From positions 4,215-68,214 of the forward strand of contig DATKXY010000098.1 of the NCBI GenBank assembly GCA_035528795.1: 64,000 nucleotides of DNA, given 5' to 3'. Both the position numbers and the translations under genes were made by a program. The stretch is from an archaeon (GTDB lineage: Bacteria > Gemmatimonadota > Glassbacteria > GWA2-58-10). The notes beneath the pieces were generated by a model, which searched no databases, had not been told where the DNA came from, and saw only the letters and a list, made by a program, of their open reading frames with translations. Of the stretch, positions 852-61,186 are shown in pieces (position 1 is the first letter of the stretch; the number at the start of each line of letters is the position of its first letter).

Positions 852-1005
852 AAAGCTCCTCACAGGCTTAATTATTCTGTTTGATAGAAGCGGAAGATAA
901 GTCAGAAAAATAAAACATACTACCGGACAGTCAAGACTTTTATATTTTAACGCAGTTATTCATGCCCTCTTGTTCCATAACTACTGAGCCAGGATTGAAA
1001 AATTC

Positions 1006-1479
1006 ATGCCAAGCCCACTGGTAATCAAACCCCACCACTTTTTAGACATTATCCGGGATTTCGGGGCAGGCGTTGAGCATGAGCCTCACCCTTACGGTCA
1101 CGCCGTGCATCGAGTGGCCCGCATCCTGCGCGAAGATCCGGACACCCTTCTTCAATTGACTGCAAGCCACGACTCGGTCTGCGAGCCCTGCAGGAACCTT
1201 GTCAATGGTCACTGTCTAGACACCACTGACACTACGGGCCAGGAAATTTCCAAGGAAAGCTACAACCTGATGATCGATCGGCGCTATTTTGAAAGGCTGG
1301 GACTCAAGGAGGGGGACAGGCTGACAGCCCTGGAATTCTGCCGGCTCACTCTGAAACGTCTGGGTGACATTTACTCGATCTATCAGGAGGTCTCCATAGA
1401 AAAGACAGCCCGGCGGGAGAGAGATCTCAAGCGCGGGCTGAAAGAATATCTGAAAAAAGGCACAGGCGGAAAAGACTGA
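1006..1479 (+). CDS. DUF1284-like small Cys/His-containing protein (hypothetical)
   Basis: The pattern IKPHHFLD ... DSVCEPCRNLVNGHC ... DRRYFERLGLKEGD matches my recollection of the DUF1284 layout (RPHH, then C..C...G.C, then D..vl..LGl..G). No search was run. Confidence 0.45.
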   Translation: MPSPLVIKPHHFLDIIRDFGAGVEHEPHPYGHAVHRVARILREDPDTLLQLTASHDSVCEPCRNLVNGHCLDTTDTTGQEISKESYNLMIDRRYFERLGLKEGDRLTALEFCRLTLKRLGDIYSIYQEVSIEKTARRERDLKRGLKEYLKKGTGGKD

Positions 1480-4017: not shown

Positions 4018-4543
4018 TACTACTCAGGTCATAAAATTATTTACATCTATCCGTAAAGGAAATTTTTATTCTTCTTTTGGTGGCAAAAGAAGCAAAACCA
4101 TTTCTTTTTAAACAAAAAGAAACAAAAGTTAATCCTGGCACTTAAGTCTTTTACTCCGCTTCGCCAAGCTCGCCTGGCGCGATAATGCTGCGCAAAGGCC
4201 TGCCTGGGCGTTGTACATCTAATATGGCGATGATGGAAATTACTTGTCTTCTACACGCTCCAAGAACACGGGCCCCGGACTCCAGGGCTTCTTATAGCCT
4301 CTAGTTTCACCTGGGATGGCTTTATCATCCCAGGTAAATGCCCTCAAACCTCTTTTCGGTAGTTGTAAAAGTTTTTCTCTTGGGATATTTCAATCGTTGT
4401 TACGTAAAGTAAGCCGCTGGCGTCTTAAATGTAAAAATTGACACTTGGTAAATCATTCCTGCTTACTCGACTTTTATGAATAACCAAGGCTGAAGCATAT
4501 AAACAATAATACAAATGGAAACTATTTAATGCTCCCTATAGTA
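4018..4543 (+). repeat. Copy A of a non-coding repeat family of about 525 bp (MITE-like; TA flanks, short imperfect TIR)
   Basis: Aligns by eye along its full length with 57505-58040 (same orientation) and with 52555-53079 (inverted). Ends are TA|CTACTCAGGTCATAAAA ... AATGCTCCCTATAG|TA. No conserved ORF. Contains perfect hairpins such as CTTCTTTTG-GTGG-CAAAAGAAG, TTTCTTTTT-AAAC-AAAAAGAAA and ACCTGGGATG-GCTTTAT-CATCCCAGGT. Confidence 0.9.
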
Positions 4544-11027: not shown

Positions 11028-11392
11028 ACCCCCTTTTGGCTAGAGAAAATGATGAAGTAACGGGGCTTCCAAAGTAAGTGTAAATTTGTTCAGACATTAT
11101 AATCCCCGGTATCAAGATAATCAAGAGATATAATCAGTAACATAAGCTGGAAGTAAATCTGGAGCCTGGATTAAATCCCGGTCTTTACAGCAAGAAGCTG
11201 TGAGTCCTGAAATTATTTGCCCGTCACAGATATGGAAATATATATTAACTTGATATTATACACAAAAGTTAGTAGAAAAGAATAAGTTTTCAGTCTTTCA
11301 AGCATTTGCTCTAGACCGGATAAATGGTTATCATAAAAACTTCCGGTCGCCGTTTGCTCATAATGGTCTGGAGTAGTGACAAGTTTCATGAA

Positions 11393-11648
11393 TAATCCGG
11401 GATTAATAAAATCATTAATAGTTGTAATCTATTTCCCCGGATTAAGCAGAGAGCATCTGAACGCCGTTGTTTGCCATTCAATGGCGGGTGGGTGTTATGT
11501 GGCGATTCTGGAGGCGGGCCGGCATTCTTTTTGCAGTAACCACAACAGCAGGAATTAACTCAGGATTGATCCAATGCAAAAAGAATGCCGGCCCACCCCT
11601 GTTGTGCGTAAAGATTAAAGTTTTCAATTACTTTAATAATCCGGATTA
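11393..11648. promoter_or_regulatory. Candidate regulatory region: two palindromes TAATCCGG(G)ATTA flanking a 20-bp-arm inverted repeat
   Basis: TAATCCGGGATTA at 11393-11405. Half-site CCGGATTA at 11437-11444. TAATCCGGATTA at 11637-11648. Perfect inverted repeat GGGCCGGCATTCTTTTTGCA (11516-11535) / TGCAAAAAGAATGCCGGCCC (11575-11594) with a 39-nt spacer. Lies upstream of the + gene at 11753. Confidence 0.45.
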
Positions 11649-11752
11649 AACACCAGGCGGTAAAACTTCAGCAGATATCGAACCAAATTTCAGCGACCGC
11701 GATTACGCGAGGTTATCTCGTTAACATAAACAATTACCGCAATTGCTTTAAA

Positions 11753-29718: not shown

Positions 29719-29836
29719 ACTACTGCGGAGAGTATTAAATAGTTTCCATCGAAAAGAGGTTTCAGAGCAGCTACCTGGGGAAGAAAAAAAATTTCCTTTA
29801 TGGATAGATGCAAACAATTTTATGACCCGAGTAGTA
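29719..29836 (-). repeat. Copy D: internally deleted 118-bp derivative of the 525-bp repeat family
   Basis: Joins three blocks of the full element: one terminus (ACTACTGCGGAGAGTATTAAATAGTTTCC), a central block (GAAAAGAGGTTTCAGAGCAGCTACCTGGGG), and the other terminus (AATTTCCTTTATGGATAGATGCAAACAATTTTATGACCCGAGTAGTA). Confidence 0.8.
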
Positions 29837-39839: not shown

Positions 39840-41300
39840 ATGCATTCTGCTGAGGGGCATGATACTCCAGTAACTCAGAGTGATGCTAAACAAGCTTTTA
39901 AAGCAATATTCAGGAATAATATTTTAATTGGGAGCGAAGAGATACTTTCATCACAGATTGAAAAAATCGCTAAGGAAGGTTCTGATGATATAGATAAACA
40001 AAAAAAGGCTATTGCCAAGTATCAACAAGTGTTAAAAGAGCTAAGGATAAGGTTTGGAACCTTACTTAAAATGGATAATGTGTCCTTTCTTCTAGGAGCT
40101 GGATGCTCTATAGATGCAGGGGGTGTGTCCTTATGTTCTATTCCCTTAACTGTAGAAAAATCTATTTTAGAAAAAGGTTTTAAAAATGGTTCTCCTCTGC
40201 CATGGCTTCTACTTTTTTACGATCTAATTGATTATCTTACCGAATGTCCGAAATACCAGCCCAAAGATAGATTAAACTCGATTCAGAACCTCGAAGAGAA
40301 AGCAGAACCAAATATAAGTATAAAAGCAAATTTCGAACAATTTCTCTCGACTCTTTTTACAATCGTTGCTAGTACTATCGGAAACGAGATAACAATTTCC
40401 TTTAGTGAAGAAAAAAAGATTAGTATAAAACGTAATAATTTAAAAACCTTGATTGAACATTTGAAGGGAAGTCTTGTTTTAACTTGCAATCTCCCCACTC
40501 CAGAGTTAAAAGATTCCCTCATTATTCAGCGCCAAATGCTCAAGAAGTTGTTAACAAGGCCCCTTAATTTGCGGCGTGTTAATCTTTTCACACTCAACTA
40601 CGATACCCTTTTTGAACAGGCCGCTGACGATGTGGGGATTGTGTTGATTGACGGGTTTATTGGCTCATTGAAGAGGGTTTTTAGACCTGAGTCATTTGAC
40701 CAAGACCTCTACTTTCCTGCGCAGACAACAGAAGGTAATGTTCGAAGACTCGACCGTGTAATACATTTGTACAAGTTGCACGGTTCGATTTCATGGCATC
40801 GAGAAGAGCCAAAATGGGAAAATCCATATGGGTTATTTGCGACATTAGTTCAGCAGGATTATCCACAAAAAGATGTTGTGATATATCCTACTCCCCTGAA
40901 ACATGGACAAGTCTTAGGATTCCCTTACTCTGAAATGTTCCGAAGGTTTGCCTCAGCAATAGTTCAGCCCCAATCTGCACTGTTCGTCATTGGATATGGA
41001 TTTGGGGATGAGCATGTTATTGCCTTGATTAGACAGGCCTTATCTATTCCAAGTTTTACATTGGTAATTATTGATCCAAATCCGCAAAGTGCATTTGTGA
41101 AACAACTTGAAAAACAGCAAGATCAACGTGTGTGGATAGTGAAAGGTGATAGTTTAGGGACATTTTCGGGTTTTGTTAAATATCTCCTTCCTGATTTGCA
41201 AGAAGAAAAAATTATTGAAGCAGTGATGAAAACCTATAATGCCCTTAGTCCATCTAACATAGAAAAATCCACCCCTTCAAGTGATAACCCCGATGAGTAA
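39840..41300 (+). CDS. SIR2-family (SIR2_2-type) protein, effector component of a SIR2-HerA defence pair
   Basis: The series FLLGAGCSIDAGG, LFTLNYDTLFEQA, LYKLHGSISW and FVIGYGFGDEHV is the motif order I recognise for defence-type SIR2_2 domains. AT-rich gene. Confidence 0.75.
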   Translation: MHSAEGHDTPVTQSDAKQAFKAIFRNNILIGSEEILSSQIEKIAKEGSDDIDKQKKAIAKYQQVLKELRIRFGTLLKMDNVSFLLGAGCSIDAGGVSLCSIPLTVEKSILEKGFKNGSPLPWLLLFYDLIDYLTECPKYQPKDRLNSIQNLEEKAEPNISIKANFEQFLSTLFTIVASTIGNEITISFSEEKKISIKRNNLKTLIEHLKGSLVLTCNLPTPELKDSLIIQRQMLKKLLTRPLNLRRVNLFTLNYDTLFEQAADDVGIVLIDGFIGSLKRVFRPESFDQDLYFPAQTTEGNVRRLDRVIHLYKLHGSISWHREEPKWENPYGLFATLVQQDYPQKDVVIYPTPLKHGQVLGFPYSEMFRRFASAIVQPQSALFVIGYGFGDEHVIALIRQALSIPSFTLVIIDPNPQSAFVKQLEKQQDQRVWIVKGDSLGTFSGFVKYLLPDLQEEKIIEAVMKTYNALSPSNIEKSTPSSDNPDE

Positions 41301-43494
41301 TGATTTTGAAATTGGTCGGGTGGTTGCTATCGATACATCTCAGGTAACAATAGAGTTAAATCCTGACCTGAAAGCACTCACCCGCTCAACTTATGAAAGC
41401 ACTACTGAGATAGGACGCATTAACTCCTATGTAATCATTCCCGTAGGTGCCAGAAGAATTGTAGCAATGGTTACAAGAGTTGTGATGATGGAAGAGGCTG
41501 AAATTCGGACCGATAAAACAATGGTGACCCTTCCTTCAGCGCGGCGAATTATGAAGGCCACAATGATCGGAACTATTGACGGGGAAGAATTCACCCAAGG
41601 CATAGGGCTTTTCCCAGTTCTCGACTCACCTGTGTTAGTAGCAACAAAAAGTGACTTAGAAGCGATATTTGGCAAAAAAGAACACATAAGTAAGCCACCT
41701 GAACCAGAAAAACCTGGCTATTGTATTCCTATTGGTGAATCTGTTGTTTTCCCTGATTATCAAATCAAAATAAATCCTGATGTTTTTTTCGGAAAGCACT
41801 CAGCGATTATCGGCAGCACTGGATCAGGCAAGTCTTGCACGATAGCAACAATTATCCAATCAATAATTCTGAACAAGGAAGTCAAAAGTACCAGATTTAT
41901 TATTCTGGATACCAATGGAGAGTATAGAACAGCTTTCCAGAGAGAGAAACAAAATGATGAATGGGAAGATGATGATCCAAGGTTTCGTTGTCTTTATATT
42001 CCAACCGATCCCGTCAAAACGAAAGATAAACTTGTTATACCATATTGGTTTATGAACTCAGATGATTTTGTTCGATTATTTAGGGCAAAAGAAGGCTTAC
42101 AAGCGCCAGTTCTCCTTAGAGCTCTTAGATTATCCAGATCAAAAATTGCTGGAAAACCTGGAATATTAACCACGATAGAAGTATTGAGAATTTCTTGTAC
42201 TCAAATCATGGCTCACACCCAAAATGATACACCAACACAACAGTGGGCTATAGCAAAAAACATTTATGAGTGTTGTGAAGATTCTCTTAGATACAGAGAA
42301 GTATTTCCGGAAAATGTAAAAAACTTGGACAAAGCGTATGGTACTGATTTTTTTCTTGATTACGAAAATGCGATTAAACAGATTCAGAAAATTGCTCAAG
42401 AAGTATATGCCCCGGATGGGAAAAAAACTAACCAATCTCTTGGTGCTACTAGAATTCAACAAATACAAAACTTTATTAATCCAGTAATTGATGCACTTAA
42501 TAAAAAAATAACCAACGAACCTACTGGGGTTCCAGAAGTATCCTCGGATCAACCAATATTTTTTGATTGCCACTCATTTTTAGAAAGAAGTCTTGAAACT
42601 GCTATGCGGGAGGAAGCTGAATCAGGAAGTCCAGGGAGAATTCGTGACGCTTGTGGTCCTATGTTCTTACGCATAAGGCGATTTTTTGAAGATCCTAGAT
42701 TCAAGTTCCTTTTTGGTCAATTTCCGAATGCTATTTACGTTCTTGCATCTTTCCTTCGTGATATTCTTGGATTATTGCCTGGAGATAATAATCTCTCTTC
42801 TTACGAAAATGTAAAGAAAGAGGTTCTTCCCTTTTATGACCGTCAGAGATCGAATATTGAAAAATCTTTTAATGTAGTAGTCATAGACCTAAGTTTGCTT
42901 GCAGCCGAGGTTCTTGAAAATGTTACAGCCTTAATTGGGCGTTTGATATTGGAATTTTTACAGAGATTAGGAGATAAAAACATCAGTGGTTTTGACAGAG
43001 GTTCTTTTCCAGTAGTGTTAGTTCTCGAAGAAGCTCAAAATTACATCAGAGAATCAAGAGGGATAGAAGAGAAATCAATTTCGAGAGAGGTTTTCGAAAG
43101 GATTGCTCGTGAGGGTCGCAAGTATGGATTAGGCCTCGTGGTAGCTTCACAACGGCCAAGTGAATTATCTAAGACTGTGCTTTCGCAGTGCAATAGCTTT
43201 ATTGTTCATAGACTTCAAAATCCCGAGGATCTTAAATACTTTAGAGAGATTGTCCCAGGTATTTATGACCAATTGTTGAACCAGTTACCAGCTCTTGCAC
43301 CTCGCCATGCTTTGATTCTTGGTGAAAGTGTTCAAGCCCCTGCTCTGGTTTATATGAGAGAGTCTAATCCAATTCCGAGAAGTAAAGATCCGAAATTTTA
43401 CAAGCAATGGGTAGCGGACAAGCCTGAAATGCCTAATGTTGAAGCGATATGCCATAAGTGGGAGGGTAAGGATAGCCAAAAAAAAGAATCTTAA
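41293..43494 (+). CDS. HerA/FtsK-like (DUF87) ATPase, partner of the SIR2 protein
   Basis: Walker A AIIGSTGSGKSC, Walker B VVLVLEEAQNYI, then REGRKYGLGLVVASQRPSELSKTVLSQCNSFIVHRL. The ATG at 41293 overlaps the SIR2 stop by 8 nt. A GTG at 41281 is also possible. Confidence 0.8.
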   Translation: MSNDFEIGRVVAIDTSQVTIELNPDLKALTRSTYESTTEIGRINSYVIIPVGARRIVAMVTRVVMMEEAEIRTDKTMVTLPSARRIMKATMIGTIDGEEFTQGIGLFPVLDSPVLVATKSDLEAIFGKKEHISKPPEPEKPGYCIPIGESVVFPDYQIKINPDVFFGKHSAIIGSTGSGKSCTIATIIQSIILNKEVKSTRFIILDTNGEYRTAFQREKQNDEWEDDDPRFRCLYIPTDPVKTKDKLVIPYWFMNSDDFVRLFRAKEGLQAPVLLRALRLSRSKIAGKPGILTTIEVLRISCTQIMAHTQNDTPTQQWAIAKNIYECCEDSLRYREVFPENVKNLDKAYGTDFFLDYENAIKQIQKIAQEVYAPDGKKTNQSLGATRIQQIQNFINPVIDALNKKITNEPTGVPEVSSDQPIFFDCHSFLERSLETAMREEAESGSPGRIRDACGPMFLRIRRFFEDPRFKFLFGQFPNAIYVLASFLRDILGLLPGDNNLSSYENVKKEVLPFYDRQRSNIEKSFNVVVIDLSLLAAEVLENVTALIGRLILEFLQRLGDKNISGFDRGSFPVVLVLEEAQNYIRESRGIEEKSISREVFERIAREGRKYGLGLVVASQRPSELSKTVLSQCNSFIVHRLQNPEDLKYFREIVPGIYDQLLNQLPALAPRHALILGESVQAPALVYMRESNPIPRSKDPKFYKQWVADKPEMPNVEAICHKWEGKDSQKKES

Positions 43495-52378: not shown

Positions 52379-52459
52379 GGAATGTCATAATACAAACTTA
52401 TTAGGCGCTTAAGCAGCGCATCGAAGAGACATTTTCGCCTAATCGATTGCATTTGGAAC

Positions 52460-52487
52460 GCCGGGGCGGTTCGCGAACCGCCCCGGC
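52460..52487. repeat. Perfect 28-bp GC-rich palindrome (REP-like, or a bidirectional hairpin)
   Basis: GCCGGGGCGGTTCG|CGAACCGCCCCGGC. No flanking T-run. Confidence 0.7.
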
Positions 52488-52554
52488 AACTAGTTGATAT
52501 ACTATGAGTTAACAATATATTGCAGGAGTCTTGCTATTTCTCTGCAATGGAAAT

Positions 52555-53079
52555 TACTACAGGGAGCAATAAATAGTTTCTATTTATATTGTTTTTATAT
52601 GCTTTAGCCTTGGTTATTAATATAAGTTGAGTAAATAGGAATGATTTACCGGATGTCGATTCTTACATTTAAGGCGCCGGCGACTGATTTATATAACAAC
52701 GATTAAAATACCCTTAGAGAAAAGCTTCTACAACTGCCGAAAAGAGGTTTGAGTGCAGCTACCTGGGATGATAAAGCTATCCCAGGTGAAAATAGAGGCA
52801 ATAAGAAGCCCTTAAGTCCGAGGACCCTGTTTCTGGAGCGTGTAGAAGACAAGTAATTTCCATCATTGCCATACTAGATGTACAACGCCCAGGCAGGCCT
52901 TTGCGCAGGCTTCCTGCGCACCAGGCGAGCTTGGCGAAGCGGAGTAAAGGACTTAAATGCCAGGATTAACTTTTGTTTCTTTTTGTTTAAAAAGAAATGG
53001 TTTTGCTTCTTTTGCCACCAAAAGAAGAAAGAAATTTCCTTTACGGACAGATGTAAATAATTTTATGACCTGAGTAGTA
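52555..53079 (-). repeat. Copy B (inverted orientation) of the 525-bp non-coding repeat family
   Basis: The reverse complement aligns end to end with copies A and C. Ends are TA|CTACAGGGAGCAATAAATAG ... TTTTATGACCTGAGTAG|TA. Lies between the convergent 3' ends of 51074..52378 and 53115..57261. Confidence 0.9.
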
Positions 53080-53114
53080 TTAATAACAAACACGCTTTCA
53101 AATCACCAAATCAC

Positions 53115-57504: not shown

Positions 57505-58040
57505 TACAACTCAGGTCATAAAATTGTTCACATCTATCCGTAAAGGAAATTCTTTTTCTTCTTTTGGTGGCAAAAGAAGCAAAACCATTTCTTTTTAAAC
57601 AAAAAGAAACAAAAGTTAATCCTGGCAATTATGTCTTTTACTCCGCTTCGCCAAGCTCGCCTACGCGCAGGAAGCCTGCGCAAAGGCCTGCCGGGGCATT
57701 GTACATCTAGTATGGCAATAATGGAAATTACTTGTCTTCTACACGCTCCAGAAACAGGGTCCCCGGACTTCAGGGATTTTTATAGCCTCTAGTTTCACCC
57801 GGGATGGCTTTATCATCCCAGGTAGTTGTACTAAAACCTCTTTTCGGCAGTTGTAAAAGCTTTTATCTCTGGGGATTTCAGTCGTTGTTATGTAAAGTAA
57901 GCCGCCGGCGCGTTAAATGTAAAAATTGACACTTGGTAAATCGTTCCTGCTTACTTGCCTTTCATGAATAACCAAGGCTGAAGCATATAAGAAATAATAC
58001 AAATTAAAACCATTTAATGCTCCATGTATTAAGACAGCTC
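57505..58040 (+). repeat. Copy C of the 525-bp non-coding repeat family
   Basis: Starts TA|CAACTCAGGTCATAAAATTG and ends ...AATGCTCCATGTATTAAGACAGCTC. The right end overlaps the last codons and stop (58029-58031) of the gene at 58029..58991. Confidence 0.9.
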
Positions 58041-58991
58041 CACTTTGTTTACTCTCAGCTCGTGGCTGCTGTCCCTGCGGGTGTACTCGTAATAGTACCA
58101 CAGAGTATTGTCCACGATCAAAGCGTCCATGTAGCGTATGCAGCCGTAAGGGCTCCGGATCCAGGGCCCGTCCGTGCTGACCCTTCTCCAGTGTTCGAGG
58201 TCGTGGCTCACGGCCACGCCGCAGTGCTCTTCGTACATGTCGTAAGCCGTGGTGCCGCCGTCGAAAAAGCCCACGTACACAGGCGGCAGATAGATAACGG
58301 AATTGATCCTGGCGCGGGCCAGGCCCCATTCGCCGGGAGCCCCTCTTCCGGGCTCGAAAACATACCGGAATTCTTTGAAATAGCGGCCGTCCGGGCTGGT
58401 CATCAGCCCAGTGGCGTCGCTCCCCAGAGGATGGCGCACCCCGTTCTCATCCTCATACCACTCCAGGCGCGGTTTGACATTCACAAACAAGTAATAGAGC
58501 CCGCCGACAATATAAGCCTTGGGGTCCTTGACCTGGCTGAGGCCGTATTCCTCAGGCTGGATCACTGTGCGATGGTGCCAGGGGTCGAAATCCCTGGGGT
58601 GGCCGGCCTCGATAAGATCCACGCGCCAGGGCCCGCCGCCTTTCTGCTGGTAGCTGATATACAGGCGCCAGATACCGCTCGGCGGGTCTTTAATCAGCGC
58701 GCCCACCTCGATAGACTCGGCATCGAGCTGCTCCTTGGCGGCCTCCCAGATATCCCTGAATACGAAACCGTCTTCCGATTCGGCAATCCGGCACTTGCCT
58801 CCTCTTCCCTTGCCCAGGGGTTTGCGCAGACGGTAGTAAAGGTAAAACTTTCCCTCCCCTGGATCGTAGATCACGTTATGGCCGCCGGCCCAGTAACCGT
58901 AACCCTCGCCTTCCGGCTCGAGAACTGTCGTGCCCTGCTCGGGATCGAACCTGGGCGGAACTCCGAAATAACGCTGGCCTGATAAGGACAT
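58029..58991 (-). CDS. Beta-propeller glycoside-hydrolase-like protein (GH32/43/130-clan-like), no signal peptide
   Basis: Repeated beta-sheet blades with the pattern W.G......D...G.fYLYYR ... VKDP....VGGLYYLFV ... SPDG. The family assignment is tentative. Confidence 0.35.
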   Translation of the reverse strand: MSLSGQRYFGVPPRFDPEQGTTVLEPEGEGYGYWAGGHNVIYDPGEGKFYLYYRLRKPLGKGRGGKCRIAESEDGFVFRDIWEAAKEQLDAESIEVGALIKDPPSGIWRLYISYQQKGGGPWRVDLIEAGHPRDFDPWHHRTVIQPEEYGLSQVKDPKAYIVGGLYYLFVNVKPRLEWYEDENGVRHPLGSDATGLMTSPDGRYFKEFRYVFEPGRGAPGEWGLARARINSVIYLPPVYVGFFDGGTTAYDMYEEHCGVAVSHDLEHWRRVSTDGPWIRSPYGCIRYMDALIVDNTLWYYYEYTRRDSSHELRVNKVELS

Positions 58992-61024: not shown

Positions 61025-61100
61025 TGGAGGCGGCGGGCGGAATCGAACCGCCGAATAAAGGTTTTGCAGACCTCTCCCTTGGCCACTTGGGTACGCCGCC
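61025..61100 (-). tRNA. tRNA-Cys (anticodon GCA), CCA encoded
   Basis: The reverse complement GGCGGCG-TA-CCCAAGTGGCCAAGGGA-GAGGT-CTGCAAA-ACCTT-TATTC-GGCGG-TTCGATT-CCGCC-CGCCGCC-T-CCA folds as a cloverleaf. Anticodon loop is CT-GCA-AA. Discriminator is U73, as expected for tRNA-Cys. Confidence 0.9.
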
Positions 61101-61110
61101 TGAAATAAAA

Positions 61111-61186
61111 TGGAGCGGGAAACGGGACTTGAACCCGCGACATCCACCTTGGCAAGGTGGCGCTCTACCAACTGAGCTATTCCCGC
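61111..61186 (-). tRNA. tRNA-Gly (anticodon GCC), CCA encoded
   Basis: The reverse complement GCGGGAA-TA-GCTC-AGTTGGTA-GAGC-G-CCACC-TTGCCAA-GGTGG-ATGTC-GCGGG-TTCAAGT-CCCGT-TTCCCGC-T-CCA folds as a cloverleaf. Confidence 0.93.

Follow-up and report, generated by a model that had tools for sequence, protein, structure and literature searches.

A TA-inserting miniature transposable element family of Glassbacteria with a conserved, probably folded internal core

Copies of the element in the window

The window analysed here, a 64-kb stretch of the Glassbacteria contig DATKXY010000098.1, contains three near-full-length copies (A, B and C) and one internally deleted derivative of a non-coding element of about 520 bp. 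The copies lie among ordinary chromosomal genes, which include a syntenic tilS-ftsH-folP group, a sulfatase gene, a gene for a GH42-like protein and two tRNA genes. The element is a MITE (miniature inverted-repeat transposable element) with a TA target-site duplication, and it contains a conserved core of about 190 nt that probably folds as a single strand. The copies and the ends of copy A are as follows, with element coordinates given without the flanking TA.

4020..4541, + strand: copy A, full-length element of 522 bp, reading CTACTCAGG...CCCTATAG, with a TMEM260-like gene on one side and folP on the other
4018..4019, no strand: left TA of the copy A target-site duplication (TA at 35/38 left ends of the family)
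4542..4543, no strand: right TA of the copy A target-site duplication (TA at 36/38 right ends of the family)
4020..4042, + strand: left terminal inverted repeat (TIR) of copy A, CTACTCAGGTCATAAAATTATTT, with a 16/23 match to the reverse complement of the right end
4519..4541, − strand: right TIR of copy A, whose reverse complement is CTATAGGGAGCATTAAATAGTTT
52557..53077, − strand: copy B, 521 bp, with TA at 52555-52556 and 53078-53079, within a different short non-coding repeat
57507..58029, + strand: copy C, 523 bp, with TA at 57505-57506 and 58030-58031
29720..29834, − strand: internally deleted derivative of 115 bp, made up of element positions 1-57, 312-341 and 497-527, with both termini and no core

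Homology among the window copies stops abruptly at TA-CTAC...GTAG-TA, and the termini of this window-type element read CTACTCAGGTCATAAAAT...ATTTAATGCTCCCTGTAG with TA outside them; the derivative is flanked by TA at one end and by AA at the opposite end. An earlier reading made from the letters of the window and their open reading frames (ORFs), referred to below as the sequence-only reading, had placed three near-full-length copies and a short derivative at these loci and had judged by eye that nine positions in ten agree. Both statements hold, with computed pairwise identities of 89.5% (A/C), 89.7% (A/B) and 88.7% (B/C).

The same reading had also raised the possibility of assembly artefacts. 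Copy C is found in three independent assemblies at 99.99-100% identity, and copy C and the derivative recur in independent assemblies of other samples at 99.96-100% identity; the window copies are not assembly artefacts. Short-read contigs break inside copies, two Logan contigs ending within the derivative, as expected for true repeats.

Ends, target site and empty sites

The ends were analysed on 38 unique full-length copies of the window's subfamily, which have a median length of 521 bp and a mean pairwise identity of 88%. TA lies directly outside the left end in 35/38 copies and directly outside the right end in 36/38. One base farther out, T is found on the left in 33/38 and A on the right in 32/38, and beyond this the flanks are random. 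This T-TA-element-TA-A arrangement points to a TTAA-like target, the central TA of which is duplicated. A piggyBac-like duplication of the entire TTAA was considered and rejected, since the C that comes after the left TTA already belongs to the element. The TIR of the window type is imperfect, matching at 16 of 23 positions by our own count on the consensus termini, while the TIRs of a second subfamily are about 18-20 nt long and read RCCYGGATTATTCATAAAT. The termini of these two main subfamilies share an inner TCATAAAWT motif.

To find sites that lack the element, the flanks of every copy were joined in silico with one dinucleotide kept, and the product was sought in all fetched DNA. Three empty sites were found, each showing exact element ends and a 2-bp duplication, and they place the boundaries precisely where the sequence-only reading had drawn them. 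The site of copy B has a counterpart in a paralogous repeat, L159:725-814, which aligns to the flanks without gaps once the element and 2 bp are removed; the junction reads TTATTAA-TA-ATTTCCATTG at copy B and TTATTAA-CC-ATTCACATTG in L159. L159 is not syntenic with the region around copy B, and an orthologous relationship was rejected; as a paralogous short repeat it is still a valid empty site. A copy in L116, compared with L097, likewise aligns ungapped after removal of the element and exactly 2 bp. The third case is an element with termini of the second type (L034:2176-2658) that is inserted in a repeat, the intact copies of which read GCCTGT-TA-GTTAAC; the filled site reads GCCTAT-TA-element-TA-GTTACC, so that a single TA has become two.

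The repeat that hosts copy B occupies window positions 52423-52553 and 53080-53114 and reads AAAGCGTGTT..TTATTAA..ATT..CATTG...TTGTTAACTC.TAGTATAT. Its paralogue at L159:725-877 is uninterrupted, has about 73% identity and lies on an unrelated contig.

Comparison of gene neighbourhoods shows insertions that are specific to lineages. The gene order ftsH-folP-TMEM260-like-DUF1284 is kept in three relatives with 55-61% protein identity, in which the gap between folP and the TMEM260-like gene measures 121-136 bp, as opposed to 664 bp in the window, a length equal to 136 + 528. The intergenic nucleotides are too diverged for an alignment with the relatives, and the argument from size alone survives. 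In the closest relative, in turn, a copy is located upstream of the DUF1284 gene, at a place where the window shows a 121-nt gap and no copy. A weak covariance-model hit at window positions 873-1019 was rejected as non-homologous to the relative's copy at the corresponding site.

TA on both flanks, the empty sites and the lineage-specific intergenic insertions together identify the element as a MITE with the hallmark of the IS630/Tc1-mariner superfamily, and the MITE with a TA duplication proposed by the sequence-only reading, including its TA-bounded ends and imperfect TIR, is borne out by these data.

The same observations bear on a different account, in which the family would be a non-mobile, multicopy gene family of a structured non-coding RNA (ncRNA), the ends of the element forming a closing stem and the TA flanks being part of the gene. 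The two ends are able to pair, folding of the entire element is somewhat better than that of shuffled sequence (z = −2.05 for the + strand, −3.48 for the − strand), and its core covaries, as described below. This account is nonetheless contradicted by the exact empty sites with their 2-bp duplication, and it is at odds with the variation of insertion sites among related species, with nesting in both directions between elements and other repeats, with dozens of copies per genome whose flanks are random past the TTAA, with a derivative that drops the core and retains both ends, and with the absence of conservation of the ends and the 3′ half between subfamilies. We regard it as very improbable.

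Distribution and copy number

In a species-representative genome set, at least 38 stretches contain a 24-nt word of the core, and at least 115 stretches in JGI metagenomes (sediment) contain a 23-nt core word; the viral contigs searched contained zero copies. Altogether, at least 160 further copies are present in public data from Candidatus Glassbacteria genomes and sediment metagenomes. The hosts of the genomic stretches listed are metagenome-assembled genomes (MAGs) of Candidatus Glassbacteria and one MAG labelled Gemmatimonadales, holding about 29. NCBI places the Glassbacteria in the candidate phylum Glassiibacteriota. The copy number amounts to dozens per genome, and many family matches lie at contig ends.

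Of 86 unique copies, not one falls within a long ORF, and their orientation shows no clear bias relative to neighbouring genes. Elements are nested in one another and in other repeats, and other repeats are nested in elements. Exact-protein look-ups of the flanking genes, made in search of strain-level empty sites, returned for all other assemblies the same strain with the elements present, and insertion polymorphism was not found within the one strain sampled.

Glassbacteria genomes appear to be unusually rich in MITE-like DNA. Their loci hold further small repeat families, such as AGCAGGGTGTTGAAATTTCATCG...CAATGTCCGG and a GC-rich palindromic repeat of about 85 nt, and examples of such repeats (L005:6220-6300, L007:7000-7096 and L022:3168-3252) are often nested in or beside elements.

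The element encodes no protein and matches no described RNA

The claim of the sequence-only reading that no protein is conserved is upheld. There is no conserved ORF in the element: stop-free stretches of about 46-52 codons, found in the core on both strands, shift frame at insertions and deletions within the family, 3-nt periodicity of the substitutions is absent, and the core lengths among subfamilies (187, 188, 190, 198, 201 and 213 nt) differ by amounts that are not multiples of 3. A conserved ATG within ATGGAAATT was considered as the relic of a transposase start and ruled out, the subfamily differences being non-synonymous and the downstream similarity out of frame.

A search of Rfam 15 with a window copy and four other loci, which covered other subfamilies, returned no match at gathering or permissive thresholds. 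The best hits had E ≥ 0.2, fell far under the gathering scores and belonged to unrelated eukaryotic or viral families, in agreement with the earlier statement that the element was not recognised as any described ncRNA.

Anatomy of the core and its subfamilies

The core spans element positions ~53-242, about 190 nt, and is common to subfamilies with different termini and different 3′ halves; outside the window's subfamily the recognisable part of the element covers positions ~38-275. In the window its features are the following.

4070..4259, + strand: core of copy A, covariance-model score 200.9 bits
52837..53028, − strand: core of copy B, covariance-model score 200.8 bits
57557..57747, + strand: core of copy C, covariance-model score 198.8 bits
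4071..4121, + strand: hairpins H1 and H2 of copy A with their linker (H1 CTTCTTTTG-GTGG-CAAAAGAAG, H2 TTTCTTTTT-AAAC-AAAAAGAAA), the most conserved part of the element
4172..4199, + strand: hairpin H3 of copy A, variable, between GCCT and AGGC; partly decayed here
4233..4259, + strand: conserved block at the 3′ edge of the copy A core, ATGGAAATTAC...CTACACGCT, whose ATG opens no conserved ORF
4309..4335, + strand: large 3′ hairpin of copy A, ACCTGGGATG/CATCCCAGGT, subfamily-specific and absent from other subfamilies

From 5′ to 3′, the core consists of H1, H2, a small hairpin GCTY-nnnn-RAGS, H3 clamped by GCCT and AGGC, and the invariant block ATGGAAATTAC...CTACACGCT. Across the family H2 takes the form TTTCTTTTN-TAAC-N′AAAAGAAA. 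The second main subfamily, about 480 bp long, combines this same core with other termini (TA-RCCYGGATTATTCATAAAT...), another leader and another 3′ half, and clustering separates no fewer than six 5′ modules from one another, as well as two major 3′ modules, with various pairings of the two kinds.

Two cores in the same orientation, 360-600 nt apart, are present at L018:4528-5698, L108:8324-9130, L110:4989-5766 and in L164; those of L018 lie in one TIR-bounded element. In L018 and L033, an insert of 440-490 bp that represents yet another repeat directly follows H2. A related lineage of repeats lacks H1 (L007:932-1156, L034:1931-2162 and L033:1616-2252). It does not contain the search word and was detected solely by the covariance model; it has an H2 variant, GTTACTTTTG-TAAC-CAAAAGTAAC, and shares H3 and the ATGGAAATTAC..TTTACACGCT block with the core. 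We think that the host repeat of the L034 insertion described above belongs to this lineage.

The leader and the core contain a diverged direct repeat, located in copy A at 4036-4073 and 4209-4252 (element positions 19-56 and 192-235). In the window-type consensus it reads GTTTACATCTATCC..GGAAATT..TCTTCT in the leader and GTTGTACATCTAGTAT..GGAAATT..TCTTCT in the core, and its score exceeds those of all 500 shuffles. It might stem from an old internal duplication or serve as a second site for protein binding. A second binding site of the inverted-repeat/direct-repeat (IR/DR) kind was rejected, as the repeat reaches significance for the window-type consensus but fails to do so for the second subfamily.

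Covariation of the core

Covariation was examined in a model-guided alignment of 52 sequences (A4), and the core helices are recovered by RNAalifold. In A4, 98.0% of the cells are paired, compared to 41-58% when the partners are slid by 1-3 columns, and 101 cells carry double changes, compared to 28 ± 5 in shuffles (0/500). Compensatory change is seen in eight pairs, three of them in H2 and four in H3, and each of the four H3 pairs carries 5-23 double changes. At the position of H3 we found at least eight unrelated stem sequences of 5-13 bp, 96% Watson-Crick over 44 copies, and the lineage without H1 adds a U-A to A-U flip in H2. The support thus comes from H2, the small hairpin and H3, and the same signal is expected from folded single-stranded DNA.

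The sequence-only reading had held that differences in the hairpins create mismatches, not compensatory pairs, and had taken this to favour a mobile DNA element over a conserved structure. For the large 3′ hairpin that it had examined, the observation stands, with one-sided changes only in 36 copies; it does not extend to the 5′ core, in which compensatory changes abound in H2 and H3 across subfamilies. The choice it had offered falls away, as the element is mobile DNA and at the same time the carrier of a conserved fold. Considering that the core persists through the divergence of the termini and the replacement of the 3′ half, and that its stems covary, we infer that it folds as a single strand, either RNA or DNA, and is under selection.

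Where mutations are depleted

In the window's subfamily, variants shared among several copies occur two to three times less often in the termini and the core than in the 3′ half, a deficit that is expected if source elements must keep both. Private (singleton) mutations, which accrue mostly after insertion, amount to about 0.5 per site over 36 copies and show a different distribution. After 23 ascertained columns, those of the search 23-mer, were left out, H1-H2 and the linkers had 2 private mutations where 21.7 were expected (p = 6e-7). The two TIRs, by comparison, have singleton rates of 1.38x and 1.11x the reference, the leader and H3 are at the reference rate, and the block ATGGAAAT...CGCTCC (positions 217-245), although equally conserved, is near-neutral at 0.75x. 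The TIRs are needed for mobility and yet decay neutrally once inserted, whereas H1-H2 does not, which suggests that H1-H2 is maintained in situ, via a per-copy function or homogenisation.

These data have to be weighed against the simpler account of an ordinary MITE with a functionless core, conserved by the recent descent of all subfamilies from one master element, by template-switch (quasipalindrome) correction and by assembler collapse. The family displays every hallmark of a MITE and includes a derivative without the core, the inner TCATAAAWT motif common to the two main subfamilies fits a single ancestor, the singleton density speaks for young copies, and promoter and terminator scans found no transcription signals. 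However, drift does not predict at least eight unrelated but 96% Watson-Crick stems at one fixed position beside near-invariant single-stranded blocks, palindrome correction leaves the conserved loops and linkers unexplained, and the core is kept across several leaders and two 3′ modules, at times in tandem. Assembler artefact is insufficient as well, given that the equally conserved block 217-245 shows no singleton depletion. We consider the ordinary MITE unlikely.

As regards the function of the core, the module would act after insertion, either within a transcript or by offering a conserved host factor a place to bind, and not in transposition alone; by analogy with other repeats, such a post-insertion role is our best guess. 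A bolder reading, which we put forward tentatively and consider rather unlikely, makes the core an undescribed structured RNA amplified by TA-inserting MITEs. It would regulate in trans as a multicopy RNA of Glassbacteria, or it would be a cofactor, made of RNA or of folded DNA, for the mobilisation or retention of the elements. Such a role would explain both why the core is better conserved than the transposase-binding ends and why it is kept up in single inserted copies.

The mobilising enzyme

The defining traits of MITEs are imperfect TIRs, a short duplication, no coding capacity, a high copy number and the occurrence of deletion derivatives with both ends still in place (PMC11602168, PMC2229807), and prokaryotic MITEs range in size from about 50 to 800 bp (PMC11602168). 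The hallmark of IS630/Tc1-mariner elements is that they insert exclusively at TA and duplicate it, as was shown in vitro for ISY100 (PMC2170065). We propose the following mechanism. A transposase encoded elsewhere would bind the imperfect TIRs and excise the element, which would then insert at a TA, preferably in TTAA, with a 2-bp stagger, and the repair of this stagger would duplicate the TA. The TIRs, exact ends and TA duplication, an anatomy of the cut-and-paste kind, are observed, as are the multicopy intergenic spread and the lineage-specific insertions; from the TA duplication and the TIRs, the enzyme that mobilises the element in trans would be a DDE transposase of the IS630/Tc1-mariner type.

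The combination of a TA-inserting MITE mobilised in trans and a folded core under selection is our best explanation overall, and we put its probability at roughly three in four. Several results weigh against it. Concerning the enzyme, no transposase is encoded within the 64-kb window, as the sequence-only reading had already reported. No transposase ORF recurs within 2.5-3 kb of the cores at about 160 copies, where the recurrent ORFs belong to ordinary paralogue families (GFO/IDH/MocA oxidoreductases, sulfatases, symporters and sigma factors). No repeat of the size of an insertion sequence (IS) was found in 1.3 Mb of loci, which yielded just orthologous stretches of related strains and a variant of about 700 bp of the same family, and a tblastn search of 1.4 Mb with IS630-like, mariner and IS5-like probes, the sequences of which we composed ourselves, gave a best E of about 0.6. 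Furthermore, some IS5-group elements give 2-4 bp duplications, so that a 2-bp TA duplication is not strictly exclusive to IS630. Concerning the core, A4 was fitted to the model and thus favours structure, and H1 and a proposed long-range CCAU/AUGG helix are invariant and so carry no covariation information; a stem around the ATGGAAATTA loop is putative. Promoter and terminator consensus scans of the element gave matches at chance level, wobble counts (G.T 7 versus A.C 5) were uninformative as to the strand, and the about ten-fold depletion of singletons in H1-H2 is possibly inflated by ascertainment or by assembler collapse of rare variants in repeats, although the near-neutral block 217-245 indicates that such artefacts are not the whole explanation.

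The derivation from IS630/Tc1-mariner elements that the sequence-only reading had proposed is hence supported by the TA duplication and the TIRs and, as no cognate transposase was found in the window or in 1.4 Mb of loci, stays putative.

An alternative of a different kind is an IS200/IS605-type, palindrome-associated element that would be moved as a single strand by a Y1/HUH TnpA to a site 3′ of TTA with no duplication, the hairpins serving as TnpA sites or the core as a TnpB/IscB guide-RNA scaffold. The prominent conserved hairpins would suit such an element, a conserved ...ATTAC loop is loosely like HUH nick sites, and in formal terms the T-TA-element-TA-A arrangement would also result if an element with TA as its last two bases had inserted 3′ of TTA. 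This reading conflicts with the presence of TIRs (about 20 nt in the second subfamily and 16/23 in the window type) and the symmetry of TA on both sides; the hairpins are found 53-100 nt in from the left end, with nothing equivalent near the right one, and the core is internal, whereas a TnpB guide scaffold would abut the right flank. In addition, genes for TnpA, TnpB and IscB are not recurrent near about 160 copies, and Rfam, including HEARO and related families, gives no match. We consider an IS200/IS605-type element highly unlikely.

Relation to known elements

The pneumococcal repeat unit (RUP) is 107 bp long, has TIRs that match an IS in the same genome, is proposed to be mobilised by IS630-Spn1 and has no reported internal functional motif (PMC2229807). 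Like RUP, the classic bacterial representative of TA-inserting MITEs, the present element is non-coding, intergenic and high-copy, has short TIRs with TA on both sides and is presumably mobilised in trans by an IS630-family transposase (PMC2229807); like pneumococcal repeats, it nests into other repeats (PMC10969869). Unlike RUP, it is about 520 bp long, has no partner that we could find and contains a covarying core of about 190 nt.

The Correia element of Neisseria, 100-200 bp long, carries an IHF site, promoters and stem-loops that are processed by RNase III (PMC2229807, PMC10969869). Correia/NEMIS and the present element are both MITEs with TIRs and with TA at the termini, and Correia/NEMIS have internal functional motifs and folding transcripts. 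The RNA structure of Correia, however, is made by its TIRs, while the fold described here is internal, independent of the TIRs and common to subfamilies with different TIRs, and we saw no sequence similarity between the two. By analogy, Correia would be the closest functional parallel for a MITE module that matters after insertion.

ISY100, for which 34/39 insertions in vitro were at TA (PMC2170065), shares with other IS630/Tc1-mariner elements the choice of TA as target, its 2-bp duplication and TIRs that are imperfect and about 20-30 bp long, all of which are also seen here; those elements encode a transposase with helix-turn-helix and DDE/D parts, whereas the present element encodes nothing. 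A precedent for MITEs as sources of small RNAs is provided by QMITE1 and QMITE2 of Coxiella, which yield the small RNAs Cbsr3, Cbsr13 and Cbsr16 (PMC10969869). In that case expression was shown and conservation of structure was not, while for the present element conservation and covariation are shown from sequence alone.

No comparable element was found in the literature searched and none is described there from Glassbacteria, and the family appears to be new. MITEs are the least studied of the bacterial mobile elements, and this family provides a well-documented case, with exact ends, a TTAA/TA target, empty sites, nesting and deletion derivatives. As contigs often break at the repeat, it should also aid the annotation of fragmented MAGs. 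Its strongest constraint lies on an internal folded module and not on the transposase-binding termini. Should the module be an RNA, a DNA transposon would here have spread a new class of RNA; should it instead be an accessory site at the DNA level, it would constitute a new cis-requirement for IS630-type transposition.

Other features of the window

A 320-aa ORF (58029..58991, − strand) has a TAA stop at 58029-58031, to which copy C contributes its final base and the duplicated TA the other two; this final base is T, the family consensus being G. The empty site of copy C would, by reconstruction (..TCT TAA AAC..), already have read TAA: the TTAA target overlapped the stop codon, and the stop was kept.

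The long intergenic region at 11030-11750 contains a terminus like that of the second subfamily, CCCGGATTATTCATGAAA, at 11401-11384 (− strand), together with several palindromes that resemble TAATCCGGATTAA. The region may represent a decayed, core-less element of a related family.

At 39840-43494 (+ strand), a gene for a SIR2_2-domain protein (486 aa) lies next to a gene for a HerA/DUF87-FtsK-type ATPase (737 aa). The GC content of this stretch is low (0.37-0.39), and the gene pair is that of the SIR2-HerA anti-phage defence system. The two tRNA genes, tRNA-Cys(GCA) and tRNA-Gly(GCC), lie in tandem at 61025-61186 (− strand).

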